DNA of 64,000 nucleotides from Bacteroidota bacterium (GCA_025963485.1 JAOQAO010000041.1:20114-84113), one strand, 5' to 3'; positions 47,256 through 55,139 are shown, counted from the stretch's first letter. Program-made: numbers and translations. The notes: generated by a model not told the origin, from the letters alone.

Positions 47256-49394
47256 TTACATCTTCACAAACCTTTTCTGCACCGATGACTTGCCATCTGA
47301 TACATGGATCATGTAGATGCCGCTTGAGATATTTTGTGTGTCGAATGAAATGTTCTTCTCGCCTGCCTGCAGCTGACCATTGAAGAGTGTCATCACTTCC
47401 CTGCCGGTCATGTCGAGCATATTGATCGTTGCATTGGTGTTGGTGCTATTCATGAGTGAGAGGGTAGCTGATCTTTGTGTTGGATTTGGCTGGATAGTAA
47501 CTGCGCTTATGTTGGACCTGACATGGCCGATACCATCCGGTGACTGGCCGATATTGATATTGTCTACATAGAATTGATTGGCTGCTTTGGCGCTGCCGAG
47601 GACAAACTTAAAGTTGAAATTGGGCACCTGATAGGCAGGCGGGAGATTGATTGTGATATTCTGCCAGTACTCATCCTGCTGACCCGGTACGTATGGGCCT
47701 GTGGAGAATGCGCCGGCATTGAAGAGATTGAAACCTCCTTCGTTATAATAGAGCCTGTTCCACGTATCCCCGCAGTCTCTCGATCCATATACGGCCAGAG
47801 AGGTGATGGAATCACTCATGTGATTGGCATCATAGGTGGCAAATGAATAATCAAATGAAAGGGTCATCGCACTTGGATCTACATTCATGAGGTCAAAAAT
47901 AGGAGAGACCAGTTCATCCCTGTCACCGTCCGTCAATGCATTATACTCGTTTAGCCTGTAGCAGGCATTGCTGTAGTGGCCTACGCCGGTAAAGTACTGG
48001 AAGCTGGTATTGTTATTGTCATAGTTGAGCGCATGCCAGTTGGCCTGGCTGGCAGTAGCATCTTCAAATCCTTCGAAATACGGGGCGGCGATGGCGCTGC
48101 CATCAGAGACGTATACCATTGATTTAACCTTTTGCGAGCTGCCATTTGTGTTGGTGACCTCGAGTGTGACCTGCTGCCAGCCGGGAGTAAAGAATGTCAC
48201 AGTCGGTGACACATCAGTATTGGTAGAGCTACCCAGGTCTGCGTCTGCAGGAAATGTCCATGTTCTGCTTTGTACCTCTGCATTCCACGATACGTCTGTG
48301 AACTTTACAGTCTGTCCGGAGCAGATATACCGGTTATTGACCGCGAAGTCGGCTACCGGTACTGCGCAGGAGTTGGGATTGGGATAGGTGAGTGGCTGAT
48401 CAGTGCCAGTGGCGACCAGATTGGTCTGCGACCAGAGATTGGTCCTGCCGGATATAGGAGAGTTGAGCGCAGCGTGCATCCTTTCGACCTGGCCCTTAGT
48501 AAACATAATGTGACAGGAAGAATAGTTCATGATGTTCTGCGTGTTCTCGAGCACGCCGGGGGTGCAGCTACTGTCTGCGAGATTGCAACTGCCATAACTG
48601 CCATCGGTTAATGGTGTATCGTCTACGAAGTCGTCTCCCGAGCAGTCGACACCAGGATCATTAGTATTGCCCCAGATGTGGGAGAGGTTCATCCAGTGGC
48701 CGCACTCGTGAGCGAGAGTAGGGCGCGACCATGAGTCATTGATCGTGCCTACGCCTACGGACATGACGATGATGCCATCTATGATATCATTATTAACGTA
48801 TTGCGCTACTGAGCCGGGATAGTAAGCATAAGCGAGGGCGGAGTTATTGGCGCGGCTCATGGTTTTGATGACCCAGACGTTGAGGTATTTCTCGCGTGGC
48901 CATGGGTGTTGCTTATTATTGTCATCGCCGTCGTAGGTGCCTTGTGAGTATATGCGCTCGATACCATTTGTGCAGTTGCCAAAAGGATCTATCTGTGCGA
49001 GGCGGAACTCTACCTGCGCATTGCCGATGAGGGTATCGAAGGGAGGTACTACGGTAGGCAGCTCGGGATTGGTCATACTCATGTATTCGTTCCACTGAGA
49101 CATCTCCCTGTATATAGTCGCATCGGAGAGATCCTCCGCGCCGGCATCATGTACTATGTGAAATACGACAGGGACTACGTAAGGACCCGTACGCTGTACA
49201 CCTTGTGCCCTGTTATGGCGGATATATTCACGGGTGAAGGAGTCGAGCTGTGCTTTGGCGATCAGGCGTTCAGGATACTGGTCGTATTGCTTCTGGCTGA
49301 GCTCACCGGCGAGGCAACCGTGCGGTGTCTGCGTCTGAGCCTGTGCACTGCCGATGACTACTATGCATAGCATGAGCAGGTATATGTTTTTCAT
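47256..49394 (-). CDS. M43 (cytophagalysin/pappalysin-like) zinc metalloprotease with T9SS C-terminal domain
   Basis: HECGHWMNLSHIWG (HExxHxxxxxH), a signal peptide, and the tail VTIQPNPTQRSATL...IYMIHV. Confidence 0.85.
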   Translation of the reverse strand: MKNIYLLMLCIVVIGSAQAQTQTPHGCLAGELSQKQYDQYPERLIAKAQLDSFTREYIRHNRAQGVQRTGPYVVPVVFHIVHDAGAEDLSDATIYREMSQWNEYMSMTNPELPTVVPPFDTLIGNAQVEFRLAQIDPFGNCTNGIERIYSQGTYDGDDNNKQHPWPREKYLNVWVIKTMSRANNSALAYAYYPGSVAQYVNNDIIDGIIVMSVGVGTINDSWSRPTLAHECGHWMNLSHIWGNTNDPGVDCSGDDFVDDTPLTDGSYGSCNLADSSCTPGVLENTQNIMNYSSCHIMFTKGQVERMHAALNSPISGRTNLWSQTNLVATGTDQPLTYPNPNSCAVPVADFAVNNRYICSGQTVKFTDVSWNAEVQSRTWTFPADADLGSSTNTDVSPTVTFFTPGWQQVTLEVTNTNGSSQKVKSMVYVSDGSAIAAPYFEGFEDATASQANWHALNYDNNNTSFQYFTGVGHYSNACYRLNEYNALTDGDRDELVSPIFDLMNVDPSAMTLSFDYSFATYDANHMSDSITSLAVYGSRDCGDTWNRLYYNEGGFNLFNAGAFSTGPYVPGQQDEYWQNITINLPPAYQVPNFNFKFVLGSAKAANQFYVDNINIGQSPDGIGHVRSNISAVTIQPNPTQRSATLSLMNSTNTNATINMLDMTGREVMTLFNGQLQAGEKNISFDTQNISSGIYMIHVSDGKSSVQKRFVKM

Positions 49395-49493
49395 TTTGGA
49401 GAGTTTTGATGAATACTCAAAGGAGGCGAAAAAATGTCATATGAACAATGGTGTGACAGTTAAATGACGGAAAGATGACATGTGTGCGAGCGT

Positions 49494-49625
49494 CAGGGAT
49501 AGTAACGAATAGCCCGGAGCGGTAAGATAATCTGCATTAGCGCTGTTTTACTATTCCAGGCTTCTCCCGAATAGGAGAGGTATAACAGCCGCGAGGACTA
49601 GAAGTGGATAGCTCGCCCGGACGCC
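49494..49625. repeat. second copy of the GGGATAG..ATAGCCCGGAGCG / GAGGACTAG..GGATAGC repeat
   Basis: Block-wise match to 2749-2838. Contains the extra hairpin cttctcc-cgaata-ggagagg. Confidence 0.7.
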
Positions 49626-49630
49626 CTATA

Positions 49631-50071
49631 TCAAAGTCCTCCGTCACTGACATCGAGGAAGAGAGTCTTCAGCCCGAGCATCATACCGTAAGCGACGACC
49701 ATATAGAAGGTGGTAGTGATGAGGATGATGCGGACCTCCCATGAGTTGGAGAAGTACTTGCCGGTCATGAGGTAGACGATGCCATACATGAGTATAGCGA
49801 TGAGGAAGTAAAGTATAAAGGAGGTGATAAGATACTTCTTATTGTCAGTGCCGAGGAGGCAGAGCCAGGGGTTGAACATGACGTAGAACACTACGCCGAA
49901 GCAGCCAGCATACATGACCATGTCGTTGGAGTGGAGGATGTATTTGGATACCAAAAGACATACGAGGCCGAGGGTGCCGATAAACAGGAACTGACGGAGG
50001 GGAGTGGCACTTTTGAGCACAGAGGCTGTAAACATCTCTCCCGGCTTGCGTAGATTATCATCTTCTGACAT
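49631..50071 (-). CDS. small 4-TM membrane protein, unknown function
   Basis: Four hydrophobic helices. Lies between the two M43 genes on the same strand. ATG at 50071. Confidence 0.5.
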   Translation of the reverse strand: MSEDDNLRKPGEMFTASVLKSATPLRQFLFIGTLGLVCLLVSKYILHSNDMVMYAGCFGVVFYVMFNPWLCLLGTDNKKYLITSFILYFLIAILMYGIVYLMTGKYFSNSWEVRIILITTTFYMVVAYGMMLGLKTLFLDVSDGGL

Positions 50072-50154
50072 AGCTGGAATATTTGCCCGCAAAGATAACC
50101 TATATAAGCCATAAATGGCTGTAAAATCTATGTAAGACTGACTAAAGTCAGCTA

Positions 50155-52092
50155 CTACTTCTGGACGATGACCTTGCGGATCTCGGTACTGTGGCCGTCT
50201 GTGATGAGAACATTATAGATGCCGGTGGCGGCATTGGGGATATTGACCTCAAAGGAATACATGCCCTCGATGTGGTCATACTCTTCTATCAGGATACTAC
50301 GCCCTATGGCATCGGTGATCTTCAGTGTGACCTTCGGGAGTAGCTCTGACGAAGCGATCATGAGGTGGAATTTGCCGGCACATGGATTGGGGTAAACATT
50401 GTACTGGATCTCAGCTTTGGCGTCTGCTATGCCTGTGGCCTGTGCGGCGTCCTGCCAGGTAGTGGCAGATAGAGCGGCACTAAGCGTGTAGCAGTCCGAA
50501 GCGTGGAAAGCAGTACCACCGCCAGAGACGTGAGCATAATAAGTGCCCACAGGAGCATTGTTGAAAGTGATGTATTCATTGTTAGTTCCATTGTTTTGTG
50601 ATGTAAATAGGAGGTTTCCTTCGATATTATATAGTTTGAGATCGTAGTCAGCAGGGAGGTCGGTGAGAGAGAGTTTGATGTGCGGTTCGATGGCTGTATT
50701 GCTGAATGCAAAGTAGTCCTTGTCATCTGCGGTGCTGATCATGGCATGGATGTCGGTGTTAGTTGCGATGGATTTGGCTGCGGTACGGGACTCGTTTGGC
50801 TCATATATATCGCTGCATGTAGCTGAAGGTGCAGTGGTGAATGAGTTGACCGCAGAATAGGTGCTGCTACCTGTGTGGCAGACCGCCTCTACATGGTACG
50901 TATAGGTAGTACCGGGTGTGAGGCCTGTGAGGTATTTGGCCGTAGATGTAGTGGTAGCGGATGCCCATATGGATGACGCGGATGGTTTGTACTCCAGTAT
51001 ATATGATGTAGCACCGGCTACTGCGGACCAGCGGATCGTATCGGTAGGTGATGATACGATGCCAGTAGTATAGGTAGCAGGTGTAGTGCAGCTGGCGGTG
51101 CCTGAAGAAGGTGGTACACAACCCTGAGAACTCGTCAGCGATGCCCTCGCACCTCCGGGAGCAAAGAGTGACTGTATGCGGGTAGCTTGTCCCGCAGAGA
51201 ACATGAACATACAAGGGTCGTCGGTATAGTCCATAAAGTTCATGAACATATCGCCGGTCGATCCATTAGTACAGGAGATGTGCGGGAAGAGCGGGCAGCC
51301 GAAGTTCTCGCCGGCCTGATTGGGTGTATCGTCTACGTAGTCGGTGCCGGTGCAGGCGCCATTGTCATTGCCCCAGATGTGGTATAGATTCATCCAGTGG
51401 CCTATCTCGTGCGTGGCAGTGCGGCCTTTGTCATAGGGTGCGGATACGGTGCCGGATGTCCCAAATGCAGTATAGTTGATCACTACTCCATCAGTCGCTG
51501 ATGCCCCGCCAGGGAACTGAGAATAACCCAGCAGTCCGCTGCCGAGGTTGCAAACCCACAGATTGAGATAGGAAGATGAAGCCCATGCGTCATCACCTCC
51601 GGTAGAAGTGTGCTTGACAGCGTCCGTGACAGTGAATGAGCTAACGGTAGTAGATGTCCGGACGATACCGTTGGTAGCATTGCCGTTTGGATCGCGCTGC
51701 GCCATGCAGAACTGTATGCCGGGATTGCCCAGTACAGGCTGGAAGGCTGAGGGAGTGCCGGAGCGGTCTGCGTTGGTCGCGCCATAGTCGGCATTGAGTA
51801 CTGCTATCTGGGAGAGTATTTGGGCATCGGAGATGTTTTGAGTGGCATTGGTATAGACCACATGGACTACTACCGGTATCGTAATGGATGAGCGGGAGGC
51901 AGAAGTGCCTCTACCGGCGATAAACCTCCTGGTTTGCTCCTCGATGCCCTGGCGGGTGACGGCGATGGAAGGGTTGTCCGCGATCATTTGGTCCAGGGAC
52001 TCCATGGCGCCACATTTCCTGTGCTGCACCTGTGCCTGCGTAGAAGCGGCAAGGGCGATCAGAAGGAGGGATAAGAGGCAGGTCTTTTTCAT
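50155..52092 (-). CDS. M43 zinc metalloprotease paralogue with FN3-like and pre-peptidase C-terminal-like domains and T9SS tail
   Basis: HEIGHWMNLYHIWG, a signal peptide, and the tail YNVYPNPCAGKFHL...IYNVLITDG. Confidence 0.85.
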   Translation of the reverse strand: MKKTCLLSLLLIALAASTQAQVQHRKCGAMESLDQMIADNPSIAVTRQGIEEQTRRFIAGRGTSASRSSITIPVVVHVVYTNATQNISDAQILSQIAVLNADYGATNADRSGTPSAFQPVLGNPGIQFCMAQRDPNGNATNGIVRTSTTVSSFTVTDAVKHTSTGGDDAWASSSYLNLWVCNLGSGLLGYSQFPGGASATDGVVINYTAFGTSGTVSAPYDKGRTATHEIGHWMNLYHIWGNDNGACTGTDYVDDTPNQAGENFGCPLFPHISCTNGSTGDMFMNFMDYTDDPCMFMFSAGQATRIQSLFAPGGARASLTSSQGCVPPSSGTASCTTPATYTTGIVSSPTDTIRWSAVAGATSYILEYKPSASSIWASATTTSTAKYLTGLTPGTTYTYHVEAVCHTGSSTYSAVNSFTTAPSATCSDIYEPNESRTAAKSIATNTDIHAMISTADDKDYFAFSNTAIEPHIKLSLTDLPADYDLKLYNIEGNLLFTSQNNGTNNEYITFNNAPVGTYYAHVSGGGTAFHASDCYTLSAALSATTWQDAAQATGIADAKAEIQYNVYPNPCAGKFHLMIASSELLPKVTLKITDAIGRSILIEEYDHIEGMYSFEVNIPNAATGIYNVLITDGHSTEIRKVIVQK

Positions 52093-52367: not shown

Positions 52368-54626
52368 ATGGCAAAAAAACTCTCTACTCCTGTTTCTGCT
52401 TTTTTTCCTCCTGACTGGCCTAAAGAAGGTCCTATTGATCTTAATATACATGATCTCCCGCATATATCATCTACGACTGAGTGGTGGTACATGCATAGCC
52501 ACATCAAATGCGGGGAAAGGAATTTTTCGCTCTTTGCGTCTTTTTTCAAGTCAGCGTTTGGCTATGACAAGAAAACTAAAAAAGCGGAGTATGGCTACTC
52601 TGTGATATGGGCGATCTCAGACCTGGATAAGCAGAAATACCATACTGTATCCCTGGTGGACCGGAGGGCGCCAAAGATAGGTATCGAAAGAATAAAGAAA
52701 GGACAGCTCGTCAAAGACCCGCACCTCAAACGTGCGGCTCTGGAGATGCTGGAGAAAGGCGTGGTTCCTTATCCTGATGAATTGCTGACACGCGATGTGA
52801 TCATCGCATCTGATAAACTGCATTTGGATTTTGACGGCAATACTTTTACAAAGAAAAAGAATGGCAACTATGTCCTGCATCTGGATCACAAGGAGCTAAA
52901 CATAAGCGCCGACCTGGAGTTTACGCCACAAAAACCGCCTACACGTCACGGTGATAATGGCGTGGTGCGCGGCGTGTCTGCAGAGGATATGTTTTATTAT
53001 TTCATCCCGCGCAATGAAGTCAAAGGCAAACTGAATGTGAAGGGCGAGAAGCTAAAGATCACATCGGCTACGGGCTGGTATGACCATGAGTTTGGTGCGC
53101 ATCCGGAGAAAAAAAATGACGAGCAAAAGAAAGATGTCTCGTGGAACTGGATCGCTGTGCAGCTGAGCAACGGTTGTGAGCTATCTGCATACGACCTGAT
53201 AGACCTAAAGACCGGTGAAGACTGCGGATCTTTTATCATACTCATAGATGAGAAAGGTAATCGCCATCACTCTACAAACTATCACCTGAAACCAGTAGGA
53301 GAGGAGTGGACGAGTACCAGGACATTTAATACTTATCCTACAATGTGGGAGTTAGTAGCTCCTGACTTTAAACTTGACCTGAAGATCGAAGCGGCGTTTC
53401 CAGCGCAGGAGTTTGCCACAGTGATATCCAAGCCTGCCTTCTGGGAGGGAAGAATGAATGCTAAAGGAAAAATGCGCGGAAGGAATGTGACAGGGCCGGC
53501 ATTTATCGAGCGGCATGGTTTTGTAAATAGCTCTGACCTGAATACTTTCCTCAAGGCTGTATCAAAGCAGACGTTGAAGTCTGTTCGCAAAATAATCCCG
53601 CTGTCATTCGGACAGGAGAAATTTGAAGAACTGATCTCTAAGAGAGGCAATAAGCACTTGACAGAAAATATAGACAAGGAGGCATACATCAATACATTCA
53701 TCAAACCTATCCGCGAGATCACGGACCGCAGTGGCAAATCATGGCGCTCATACGCAACCATCGCCTGCTGCGATGTGGTGGGTGGCAACTCGCAAGTCGC
53801 TATAGACTGGCTCGCACTACCGGAGCTGATGCACGTCGGCTCGCTGATGGTAGATGACGTACAGGATGAATCGACTGTACGCAGAGGCGGGCCCACAGCA
53901 CATGTGGTACACGGACAGGCTACAGCGATCAACTCGGGTACAGCGGCCTACTTCCTCGGACAGATATGTATCTATGAGGCAGATATGCACTTTGAGGAAA
54001 AGGTACAGGTATACAACTGGTACTTCGAAGCAATGCGTGCGTCGCATAGCGGACAGGCCATGGATATCAAGGGTCTGGACTATATGATGCCTGAGGCACT
54101 GGTAGATGACAACGTGGCGCGCCTGCTGAGCAAGCGTGTACTGGCTACGCACCGCCTCAAATCGGCCGCACCTGCGAGCTATCTGGCACAGATAGGAGCA
54201 CTCATCGGTGGCGCGTCGAAGGAGCAGATAGCGGGATTGGGAGACTATTATGAGAAGCTGGGCATAGCCTTTCAGATCATAGATGATACCCTCAATCTGA
54301 AAGGGTTTAAGGATCACCTGAAGACAAAGGCAGAAGATATCACAGCGGGTAAGATCACCTATCCTATCGCTGTCGCGATGGCGCATCTGGATAAAGCTGA
54401 TCGCAAAAAACTCTGGAAAATAGTTAGCTCCAAGACAAGCGATATCAAGCAGCTATCCCAGGCGGTAGCGCTGCTCGATAAGCACAAGGTCATAGAAAAA
54501 TGTGAGCGCGAAGCGAGGACCATGCTCGATAAGGCATGGTGGAGGCTCGATCCGCTGATCAAAGACTCAATGGTCAAACTTAATATGCGTGCCTTCGGAT
54601 GGTTCGTACTGGAGAGGACTTACTAA
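52368..54626 (+). CDS. fusion protein: N-terminal AttH/CrtC-like (lipocalin-like hydratase fold) domain + C-terminal polyprenyl diphosphate synthase
   Basis: N-terminal half: TTEWWYMHSHI and GWYDHEFG (AttH/CrtC blocks). C-terminal half: GSLMVDDVQDESTVRRGGPT (first DDxxD) and GIAFQIIDDTLNLKG (second motif reads DDTLN). Confidence 0.7.
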   Translation: MAKKLSTPVSAFFPPDWPKEGPIDLNIHDLPHISSTTEWWYMHSHIKCGERNFSLFASFFKSAFGYDKKTKKAEYGYSVIWAISDLDKQKYHTVSLVDRRAPKIGIERIKKGQLVKDPHLKRAALEMLEKGVVPYPDELLTRDVIIASDKLHLDFDGNTFTKKKNGNYVLHLDHKELNISADLEFTPQKPPTRHGDNGVVRGVSAEDMFYYFIPRNEVKGKLNVKGEKLKITSATGWYDHEFGAHPEKKNDEQKKDVSWNWIAVQLSNGCELSAYDLIDLKTGEDCGSFIILIDEKGNRHHSTNYHLKPVGEEWTSTRTFNTYPTMWELVAPDFKLDLKIEAAFPAQEFATVISKPAFWEGRMNAKGKMRGRNVTGPAFIERHGFVNSSDLNTFLKAVSKQTLKSVRKIIPLSFGQEKFEELISKRGNKHLTENIDKEAYINTFIKPIREITDRSGKSWRSYATIACCDVVGGNSQVAIDWLALPELMHVGSLMVDDVQDESTVRRGGPTAHVVHGQATAINSGTAAYFLGQICIYEADMHFEEKVQVYNWYFEAMRASHSGQAMDIKGLDYMMPEALVDDNVARLLSKRVLATHRLKSAAPASYLAQIGALIGGASKEQIAGLGDYYEKLGIAFQIIDDTLNLKGFKDHLKTKAEDITAGKITYPIAVAMAHLDKADRKKLWKIVSSKTSDIKQLSQAVALLDKHKVIEKCEREARTMLDKAWWRLDPLIKDSMVKLNMRAFGWFVLERTY

Positions 54627-54657
54627 TTGACAATGTAAAATTGACAATTGATAATGG
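54625..54657. promoter_or_regulatory. two copies of the palindrome AATTGaCAAT(T) (operator-like), filling the 27-bp gap between the fusion gene and the GyrI-like gene
   Basis: 54639-54657 is identical over 19 nt to 2846-2864. Another AATTGACAAT lies at 54625-54634. Confidence 0.4.
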
Positions 54658-55139
54658 AACCACGCATAGAAGCAATAGCAGAGAAGAAACTTGCCGGCAA
54701 AAGTCTTCAAATGACTATAGTTCAGGATCGCACCGCGGAGCTATGGCGCAGTTTCATGCCCGAGAGGAAAAAAATAACAAATGCCATAGGCAGTGATCTC
54801 TACTCCCTTCAGGTTTATGATGCAGCGATGGAGTTTAAAGACTTCACTCCGCAAACAGTATTTACGAAATGGGCGTTGCAAGAGGTGTCCAATCTTAATG
54901 AGGTACCTGAGGGAATGCTGTCATTTGTATTGACGGGCGGACTCTATGCTGTATTTAACTATAAAGGCAGGCCGCAAGATTATGCGCCCACCTTTCAATA
55001 CATATTTTCCGAGTGGATGCCTCTGTCAGGATATGAGGTGGATAAAAGGCCGCACTTCGAGCTACTCGGAGAGAAGTACAAAAACAATGACCCGGATTCG
55101 GAAGAGGAGATATGGGTGCCTATAAAGAAGAGGATATAA
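54654..55139 (+). CDS. GyrI-like small-molecule-binding domain protein
   Basis: MEPRIEAIAEKKLAG..., YAVFNYKG, and HFELLGEKY...EEEIWVPIK fit the GyrI-like/AraC-effector-binding layout. ATG at 54654. Confidence 0.6.
   Translation: MEPRIEAIAEKKLAGKSLQMTIVQDRTAELWRSFMPERKKITNAIGSDLYSLQVYDAAMEFKDFTPQTVFTKWALQEVSNLNEVPEGMLSFVLTGGLYAVFNYKGRPQDYAPTFQYIFSEWMPLSGYEVDKRPHFELLGEKYKNNDPDSEEEIWVPIKKRI

Follow-up and report, generated by a model that had tools for sequence, protein, structure and literature searches.

A predicted type III-like geranylgeranyl diphosphate synthase fused to an AttH/CrtC-fold, hydratase-like domain in Bacteroidota and other bacteria

Why would a bacterium join a prenyl diphosphate synthase to a protein domain of the AttH/CrtC fold, and what reaction might the joined enzyme catalyze? 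The question is raised by one gene in a 64,000-nucleotide stretch of DNA (hereafter the window, with positions counted from its start) from the Bacteroidota bacterium GCA_025963485.1 (JAOQAO010000041.1:20114-84113). This gene encodes a protein of 752 amino acids in which a double β barrel resembling certain hydratases is followed by a trans-isoprenyl diphosphate synthase. The answer that we favor, with a confidence only slightly above an even chance, is that a type III-like geranylgeranyl diphosphate (GGPP) synthase has been rigidly fused to a hydratase of the AttH/CrtC fold, and that the result is a cytoplasmic bifunctional enzyme yielding a hydroxylated C20 isoprenoid lipid precursor. Both halves are well-understood kinds of enzyme and their fixed combination is widespread across several phyla, and our literature searches on the fusion returned no paper describing it, its product or its role. 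The parts of the gene that bear on this proposal are as follows.

52368..54626, plus strand: whole fusion gene (P0001), an open reading frame (ORF) from ATG to TAA of 752 amino acids with zero internal stops
52401..52475, plus strand: N-terminal conserved segment, residues 12-36 (PxDWP..GPIDL.IHDLPH), ahead of the Pfam CrtC match
52476..53096, plus strand: CrtC N-terminal lipocalin domain, residues 37-243 (Pfam PF07143, E 6.8e-20), with EWWY at 38-41 and GWYDHEFG at 236-243
53082..53084, plus strand: codon of D239, candidate catalytic acid of the hydratase-like domain, judged by conservation of the acid and by residue spacing
53127..53513, plus strand: second barrel, Lipocalin_9, residues 254-382 (Pfam PF17186, E 2.6e-18), with W259-x-W261, S316, Q347-E348 and W359-E360
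53523..53699, plus strand: domain junction, residues 386-444, an open frame with modeled helices right behind the barrel
53700..54473, plus strand: trans-isoprenyl diphosphate synthase domain, residues 445-702 (Pfam PF00348 polyprenyl_synt, E 2.9e-46; PDB sequence matches to 1e-24; Foldseek match 1WY0)
53853..53867, plus strand: first aspartate-rich motif (FARM), DDVQD, residues 496-500, with G491 and S492 at positions -5 and -4
53949..53954, plus strand: Y528-F529, counterparts of the chain-length 'floor' residues Y107/F108 of yeast GGPP synthase by alignment to PvCPS
54045..54047, plus strand: H560, counterpart of H139 of yeast GGPP synthase by alignment to the H of 'LHRGQG'
54276..54296, plus strand: second aspartate-rich motif (SARM), IIDDTLN, residues 637-643, of the DDxxN type by family alignment

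The initial annotation had described a single uninterrupted ORF that carries both domains, and the open frame together with three Pfam matches bears this out; the strings that it quoted lie at residues 38-45 (EWWYMHSH), 236-243 (GWYDHEFG), 496-500 (DDVQD) and 637-643 (IIDDTLN). All three Pfam domains exceed their curated cut-offs, with polyprenyl_synt scoring 158.2 bits against a cut-off of 27 and covering 246 of 251 profile positions, and with CrtC and Lipocalin_9 at 72.8 and 66.9 bits, respectively. These last two models also cover AttH-like proteins, and a match to them is not by itself proof of CrtC proper. A scan of the fusion with NCBIfam models reached no equivalog, and the top-scoring models, IdsA and an encapsulin cargo prenyltransferase, remained far under their cut-offs. 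The protein has neither a signal peptide nor a transmembrane segment (its maximal 19-residue Kyte-Doolittle window is 1.36).

A gene of this kind could be a product of error or decay, in that two adjacent genes might have been misjoined, or an ordinary GGPP synthase might carry along a dead domain. Such an origin would fit the draft state of the assembly (279 contigs) and one relative, in a Bacteroidetes metagenome-assembled genome (L055:7989-10236), in which a frameshift, either real or an assembly error, breaks the gene into a pair of overlapping ORFs (244 and 520 amino acids). Against it stands the recurrence of the same architecture in more than 1000 full-length proteins of independent assemblies, cultured strains included. 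When 5.8 billion proteins were searched by a word index, 1280 matched the fusion, and the best 120 of these 1280 are without exception three-domain proteins (120/120) of 56-93% identity. HMMER, run exhaustively against 1.84 billion representatives of 50% identity clusters, found at least 401 clusters below 1e-30, among which are many full-length fusions with identities down to 27-30%. The contigs that carry homologues reach 2.3 Mb, and many of them are long and labeled Chitinophagales, Saprospiraceae or Bacteroidetes.

The constraint on the two halves is likewise similar, and the gene and the window differ little in GC content (48.3% and 46.8%, respectively). Furthermore, an AlphaFold2 model computed with 46 homologues presents both halves as one confident body, with a mean predicted local distance difference test score (pLDDT) of 89.7 and a predicted template modeling score (pTM) of 0.88. 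Helices at residues 391-409, 416-423 and 437-452, with pLDDT mostly at or above 90, start directly behind the final barrel strand, and the model therefore indicates no floppy, long, low-confidence linker between the domains. We conclude that assembly error is effectively refuted as an explanation, and we consider artefact or decay in any form exceedingly improbable.

The synthase half appears fully equipped for catalysis. Residue counts given here out of 72 refer to 72 family members with no more than 50% mutual identity, whereas a second, closer set comprises 46 sequences down to 47% identity. All catalytic elements of trans-isoprenyl diphosphate synthases are kept, each in 62 to 72 of the 72 members, namely GK457xWR460, D496/D497/D500, R505-R506-G, G562-Q563xxD566, K598, F635-Q636, the SARM residues D639/D640, K652 and G661-K662. 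Within the FARM, D496 is present in 71, D497 in 72 and D500 in 70 members, and the small residues that precede it, G491 and S492, in 65 and 61, respectively. D639 and D640 of the SARM are each present in 68. The initial annotation had singled out this second motif as a variant on the grounds that it reads DDxxN, but the alignment reveals an ordinary type III form, in which position 643 is occupied by N in 41 of the 72 members and by D in 27. This alternation implies that the two residues are interchangeable in the fusion family; N643 is invariant in the 46-sequence set. DDxxN is the known second motif of type III GGPP synthases, as in 188-DDYAN-192 of the human enzyme (PMC4106277, PMC7484799).

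Several features point to the length of the chain that the synthase would make. When the core from the FARM to GQxxD is compared with PDB sequences, the best matches are the prenyltransferase domain of PvCPS from Penicillium (1.2e-11), human 2Q80 and yeast 2DH4. In yeast GGPP synthase, Tyr107, Phe108 and His139 halt elongation at C20, and type III enzymes are additionally marked by small residues at positions -4 and -5 and by a FARM that lacks a two-residue insertion (PMC9729869). The fusion carries all of these marks, with S492 at -4, G491 at -5 and an insertion-free DDVQD. Its Y528-F529 pair aligns with the Y-F of 'NSGNYVYFL', and H560 with the H of 'LHRGQG', in the GGPP-synthase domain of PvCPS; the 2DH4 match has coordinates that agree with this assignment, and the three residues are present in 64, 66 and 69 of the 72 members, respectively. 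Because both the type III chain-length residues and the small -4/-5 residues are kept, the predicted product is C20 GGPP. When the domain is compared in full, archaeal and bacterial synthases, long-chain enzymes included (1WY0, 3MZV), score equal to or better than the eukaryotic type III enzymes, and a Foldseek search with this half of the model finds the GGPP synthase 1WY0 with a template modeling (TM) score of 0.88.

The closest parallels for this half are thus the type III GGPP synthases, both stand-alone (S. cerevisiae BTS1 and human GGPS1) and as domains of the fungal chimeras PvCPS and PaFS, with which it has in common the DDxxD and DDxxN motifs, the small residues at -4 and -5 and the chain-length residues of AINSG..YF and HxGQ, and which supply its best PDB core matches. 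The chimeras also resemble the fusion in that they join a prenyltransferase to the enzyme that acts next in a terpenoid pathway. This parallel, drawn in the initial annotation, holds for the prenyltransferase half only: the fusion is bacterial, and its partner domain is an all-β barrel rather than an α-helical class I (DDxxD/NSE) or class II (DxDD) cyclase. Two further stand-alone synthases are encoded in the genome, one of a short-chain and one of a long-chain type, and the fusion is therefore an extra enzyme rather than the housekeeping synthase.

What, then, does the barrel contribute? In Foldseek searches the N-terminal half matches 2ICH with a TM score of 0.84 (E 6.7e-19) and kievitone hydratase (7A0T/7A0Q) with 0.76, and more weakly a 25-phosphosteroid lyase with 0.46-0.49. 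The sole solved protein that is related to the barrel by sequence is the putative AttH protein NE1406 from the first of these entries (PDB 2ICH; phmmer 9.6e-13). NE1406 and the kievitone hydratase of Nectria haematococca are the closest solved folds, but they have just 15-18% identity to the barrel and are secreted or periplasmic stand-alone proteins. Members of the AttH family are also linked with ATP-binding cassette (ABC) genes of the AttFG/MacB type; no such genes are present at the locus in the window, although some distant relatives of the fusion do have ABC neighbors.

The barrel is about as conserved as the synthase, with identities among the most distant aligned members of 48% and 53%, respectively. 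Position 239 is acidic (Asp or Glu) in 68 of 72 members and invariant in the 46-sequence set, and S316 (72/72), E348 (71/72), W40 (67/72), W259 (56/72) and W261 (55/72) are also kept, as are E38, P136-D137, W237, Q347, W359-E360 and E381. The segment at residues 12-36, ahead of the CrtC match, has D16, W17, D29, P31 and H32 invariant in the 46 sequences. Near relatives of the barrel at 41-42% identity (P0325 and P0259) are fused not to a synthase but to a PX (phosphoinositide-binding) domain; one cluster of such PX fusions has 48 member sequences, and these proteins may be eukaryotic.

The reaction known from characterized members of the superfamily is the hydration of a trisubstituted isoprenoid double bond, with a tertiary alcohol as the product. 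CrtC hydrates carotenoids, and the Rubrivivax gelatinosus enzyme (RgCrtC) takes acyclic terpenes of C12-C20 (PMC4717167, PMC12402844); kievitone hydratase forms a tertiary alcohol by adding water to a prenyl side chain (PMC5805349); and an AttH-like enzyme makes archaeal hydroxylated glycerol dialkyl glycerol tetraether (GDGT) lipids (bioRxiv 10.1101/2025.10.20.683597). This last enzyme, the hydroxy-GDGT synthase Hgs of Bathyarchaeota and ANME (Garcia et al., same preprint), is comparable to the barrel as an AttH-family hydratase that places a tertiary hydroxyl on a membrane isoprenoid and that is genetically coupled to the enzyme supplying its substrate. It differs in being a separate archaeal protein that is paired with a radical-SAM desaturase and acts on a finished tetraether lipid.

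RgCrtC requires H239, W241, Y266, D268, W283, W285 and W110 (PMC4717167, PMC12402844). The fusion has the pattern Y210-x-F212-(25)-W237-x-D239, whose spacing is identical to that of H239-x-W241-(25)-Y266-x-D268 in RgCrtC (PMC4717167), a correspondence that comes from residue counting; W259-x-W261, matched by spacing to W283/W285, comes after a slightly longer loop of low confidence. D239 would accordingly be the equivalent of D268, with the acid and aromatic residues kept and His239 replaced by Tyr. A search for stand-alone relatives of the barrel yielded mostly fragments of fusions and no authentic CrtC. Similarly, a tblastn search of plasmids for a real crtC gene found none and brought up the Tolypothrix and Streptomyces fusions instead.

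These observations are consistent with the following scheme. The C-terminal synthase would add isopentenyl diphosphate (IPP) to an allylic primer and most likely stop at all-trans C20 GGPP. The barrel would hydrate the C20 chain that comes from the neighboring synthase, either as the diphosphate or as a later product, and probably at the terminal isopropylidene unit to give a tertiary alcohol, with the hydroxyl predicted at C15. By analogy with characterized hydratases, an acid of the barrel would protonate the double bond without a cofactor, and water would trap the resulting tertiary carbocation. D239 is the candidate for this acid, W237, W259, W261 and W40 would be likely to stabilize the cation, and E348 and S316 are further (near-)invariant polar residues. 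That the two halves are coupled is supported by their retention together across phyla, by the pTM of 0.88 and by the helices that adjoin the barrel. The initial annotation had suggested that the fusion channels a prenyl product into hydration or cyclization; that chain synthesis is coupled to hydration, or else to some other carbocation chemistry, is indeed the most reasonable interpretation, whereas nothing specific speaks for cyclization and the closest folds are hydratases.

The genes found next to the fusion in other lineages suggest what may become of such a product. We clustered 914 ORFs from 80 loci, 76 of them with tabulated neighbors, and this neighbor clustering found no universal partner across the 80 loci. 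Telluribacter, two Chitinophagaceae and the cyanobacterium Iningainema have a glycosyltransferase (GT) of the GT28 type beside the fusion. The first three of these, all Bacteroidota, share an operon in which the GT precedes the fusion and a 760-amino-acid LMF1-like membrane protein comes after it, with an FkbM methyltransferase gene next in two of the three and one or two cytochrome P450 genes in all three; in two loci of Myxococcota type a GT4 glycosyltransferase gene abuts the fusion. Seven Chitinophagales loci have genes for 3-hydroxy-3-methylglutaryl-coenzyme A reductase, diphosphomevalonate decarboxylase and a GHMP kinase divergently upstream; in the window's own genome, genes of the mevalonate pathway are present elsewhere. 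In Streptomyces canus, the fusion is divergent from genes for an ABC ATPase and a permease. A regular-expression scan of the neighbors for ABC-exporter motifs gave almost no matches and missed the Pfam-confirmed ABC ATPase of locus L048, and we did not rely on it.

In some relatives the additional activities are part of the same polypeptide, with proteins of about 1050 amino acids carrying a GT1 domain ahead of the barrel and proteins of about 1500 amino acids a sulfotransferase as well. For example, WP_096622351.1 from Tolypothrix PCC 7601 (1509 amino acids) contains Sulfotransfer_3, the N-terminal domain of Glyco_transf_28, EryCIII-like_C, CrtC, Lipocalin_9 and polyprenyl_synt. Its gene has a gene for an 'ABC exporter membrane fusion protein' (DevB-like) upstream and genes for DevC and an ABC ATPase downstream. 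The DevBCA-type pump is an exporter of heterocyst glycolipids. The four-domain order reads like a pathway in reverse, from the synthase at the C terminus through the hydratase and the glycosyltransferase to the sulfotransferase, and a hydroxyl made by the barrel would be a natural acceptor for the sugar. In such lineages the hydroxyl appears to serve as a handle for tailoring reactions (glycosylation, sulfation, methylation or oxidation) that precede export, whereas the locus in the window's genome holds the core enzyme only.

The four-domain gene of Tolypothrix lies with its DevB, DevC and ATPase genes (L089; NZ_CP064882.1, 126388-136407) on a mobilizable 175-kb plasmid among IS701 transposase, tyrosine recombinase and Tn7-like TnsA genes, and the whole module looks mobile. 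A metagenome contig from ENA (L087:10001-14599) encodes a protein of 1532 amino acids that combines a sulfotransferase, a GT1, an AttH/CrtC and an isoprenyl diphosphate synthase domain. Its neighbors carry DUF7331, DUF7411 and PF01984 and the neighborhood looks archaeal, and the four-domain form may therefore occur in archaea too.

There is also a bolder proposal, which we advance tentatively and judge to have somewhat less than an even chance of being correct. The fusion might be the enzyme that founds an as yet undescribed class of C20 hydroxy-diterpenoid lipids, which in some lineages would be glycosylated, sulfated and pumped to the envelope by exporters of the DevBCA or MacB type. The fusion family itself occurs in Bacteroidota, Myxococcota, cyanobacteria, actinomycetes and apparently archaea. 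It would also be the first AttH-fold hydratase whose direct substrate is made by a fused prenyl synthase, and this substrate might even be the diphosphate. If so, the fusion would point to a bacterial family of terpenoid lipids or glycolipids that is new, the large and mostly unassigned AttH/CrtC superfamily would gain a second physiological context beyond carotenoids and archaeal tetraethers, and the protein would be a self-contained biocatalyst that converts IPP and dimethylallyl diphosphate to a tertiary terpene alcohol, which is chemically hard to make (PMC12402844). For the copy in the window, a solitary member of the family without informative neighbors, the result is more modest.

Several points weigh against our interpretation. 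The gene is solitary in this genome and in its clade, with no glycosyltransferase, exporter or tailoring gene nearby, and no homologue of the LMF1-like protein, of FkbM or of the glycosyltransferase family found beside the fusion elsewhere (c32) was found anywhere in the window's assembly. The match of barrel residues to CrtC is drawn from spacing rather than from an alignment with a true CrtC, and it turns His239 into a Tyr. In addition, we know of no cellular use of free hydroxy-GGPP.

With the domains, their motifs, fold, conservation, distribution and neighbors established, alternative roles of the barrel can be weighed. It might perform a different carbocation reaction, either a protonation-initiated, class II-like cyclization or the loss or relocation of a (di)phosphate to leave a tertiary alcohol or an alkene, which would make the protein an unconventional terpene synthase. 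The mechanism of CrtC, with an acidic Asp and aromatic residues, has been likened to that of squalene-hopene cyclase (PMC4717167), and the weak fold match to 25-phosphosteroid lyase involves an enzyme that takes a phosphate off a tertiary isoprenoid carbon; cyclization had also been raised in the initial annotation. However, the top structural matches are hydratases with TM scores of 0.76-0.84, and hydration directly provides the hydroxyl that the glycosyltransferase partners need as an acceptor. Our literature searches found no AttH-fold cyclase, and we know of none; a paper on the 'non-canonical class II cyclase' of atolypene that came up concerns an unrelated protein. We consider this reaction type unlikely, if not negligibly so. 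The alternative that we rank next, and that we also hold to be unlikely, assigns the barrel no catalysis at all but a role in binding the lipid product of the synthase and handing it to a membrane, transferase or exporter. A lipocalin-like fold, the exporters that flank some relatives and the Tyr that replaces CrtC His239 under the spacing-based mapping would all suit such a carrier, and AttH-type proteins classically accompany ABC exporters. On the other hand, the near-invariant D/E239, E348, S316, E38 and E360 of the CrtC and Lipocalin_9 domains resemble an active site rather than a greasy pocket, the barrel is conserved as much as the catalytic synthase half, and GGPP synthases normally need no carrier.

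Lowest in our ranking of these roles, and improbable in our judgment, is a place for the fusion in carotenoid synthesis, with the C-terminal half as a CrtE-type GGPP synthase and the N-terminal half as a true CrtC 1,2-hydratase that makes the 1'-hydroxy psi-end of pigments of the saproxanthin, flexixanthin or myxol type; the glycosyltransferases of relatives would then make carotenoid glycosides. Saprospiraceae, Cytophagales, Myxococcota and cyanobacteria are known for 1'-hydroxy or glycosylated monocyclic carotenoids, the fused glycosyltransferase (GT1/EryCIII-like) is of the same broad type as CrtX, and NCBI names some fragments of the family 'carotenoid 1,2-hydratase'. SQS_PSY proteins occur in all 29 fusion-bearing Chitinophagales genomes and in 167 of 201 overall, a co-occurrence that, with a background of 83% and related genomes, is not decisive. 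They are also kept in 138 of the 172 fusion-negative genomes of the order, which implies that pigment synthesis is independent of the fusion, and within the window's genus the fusion is present in 2 of 4 other genomes. Furthermore, a carotenoid cluster on another contig of the genome (C217; L005:3-3535) already has a 1',2'-hydratase-type CruF gene (PF04240, cut by the contig end), together with the desaturase CrtI, CrtB and a fused heterodimer-type lycopene cyclase. The organism is likely to produce a hydroxylated monocyclic carotenoid without help from the fusion, which lies outside that cluster and is the genome's sole PF07143 protein. No crtB or crtI was found among the annotated recurrent neighbor families of the 76 loci, where neighbors seen once or twice were left unannotated. 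A carotenoid fusion would moreover unite the first step of the pathway with a late one and skip the enzymes between, and the sulfotransferase and the exporters of DevBCA and other ABC types suit an exported lipid more than a membrane pigment.

The comparison with CrtC itself (EC 4.2.1.131; Rubrivivax gelatinosus and Thiocapsa roseopersicina) leads to the same judgment. Both proteins have the PF07143 plus PF17186 two-barrel fold, and the residue set of CrtC, which carries out a cofactor-free Markovnikov hydration of a terminal isoprene unit with an acidic Asp flanked by Trp residues, can be likened to that of the barrel. However, the fusion has no N-terminal membrane anchor like that of RgCrtC (PMC12402844), lies outside any carotenoid or photosynthesis cluster, is joined to a prenyl synthase, carries the DWP...HDLPH segment ahead of the CrtC match and appears to have a Tyr as its His239 equivalent. 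Because gene context and membrane anchor both speak against it, and because the residue mapping is spacing-based, the fusion should not be filed as a CrtC. A second SQS_PSY paralogue of about 400 amino acids, which outscores the 285-amino-acid CrtB, is found in many Chitinophagales genomes with or without the fusion; in one of them it lies 9 kb from the fusion gene (G095:C2:867404-868222), and none was found in the window's assembly, which is 91% complete.

The distribution of the fusion is broad but patchy. It is seen in Chitinophagales, Saprospiraceae, Cytophagales, many Myxococcota, cyanobacteria and Streptomyces, and among contigs sampled at one genome per species it is carried by Chitinophagales/Saprospiraceae, Telluribacter humicola KCTC 42819, many Myxococcota and Iningainema tapete. 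Cultured carriers are the same Telluribacter strain, Iningainema tapete BLCC-T55, two Spirosoma species, Streptomyces canus and Tolypothrix PCC 7601, and the tblastn search of plasmids showed plasmid-borne copies in Tolypothrix PCC 7601/7712 and Streptomyces canus. Within the order of the window's organism, 29 of the 201 genomes searched carry the gene, including 8 of 16 in the window's family and 14 of 16 in one other family. The fusion behaves as an accessory gene. In a quick tree the window's gene falls in a Chitinophagales/Saprospiraceae clade of solitary copies, while the Bacteroidota copies from the glycosyltransferase operon cluster with cyanobacterial and Myxococcota sequences, a grouping that suggests horizontal spread of the operon form.

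Near the fusion gene in the window, one further gene follows on the same strand.

54654..55139, plus strand: GyrI-like/Cass2 small-molecule-binding protein, downstream (Pfam GyrI-like 3e-20, Cass2 1.8e-18)

The 27-bp gap that the initial annotation gave for this gene is correct when it is counted from the likely ATG at 54654; the longest ORF starts at a TTG at 54648, and the protein has 161-163 amino acids. The gene is probably co-transcribed with the fusion. It is found downstream only in the window and in two of the nearest relatives (L007 and L010), and its product is probably not a conserved partner of the fusion. Between the fusion stop and the GyrI-like ATG (54625-54657), the sequence AATTGACAAT(T) occurs twice (ttaCTAATTGACAATgtaaAATTGACAATTGAtaATG), and this doubled AATTGACAAT element could be an operator or terminator-like.

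Upstream and on the opposite strand (47256-52092, minus) lie genes for two paralogous M43 metalloproteases with C-terminal sorting domains of the type IX secretion system, which mark the organism as a member of the Bacteroidota. The two proteases differ in their accessory domains (PKD in one, FN3 plus PPC in the other) and flank an ORF of 153 amino acids without a Pfam match, and the arrangement of the M43 pair is kept in the nearest relatives (clusters c4 and c7 in L007-L010 and L072).

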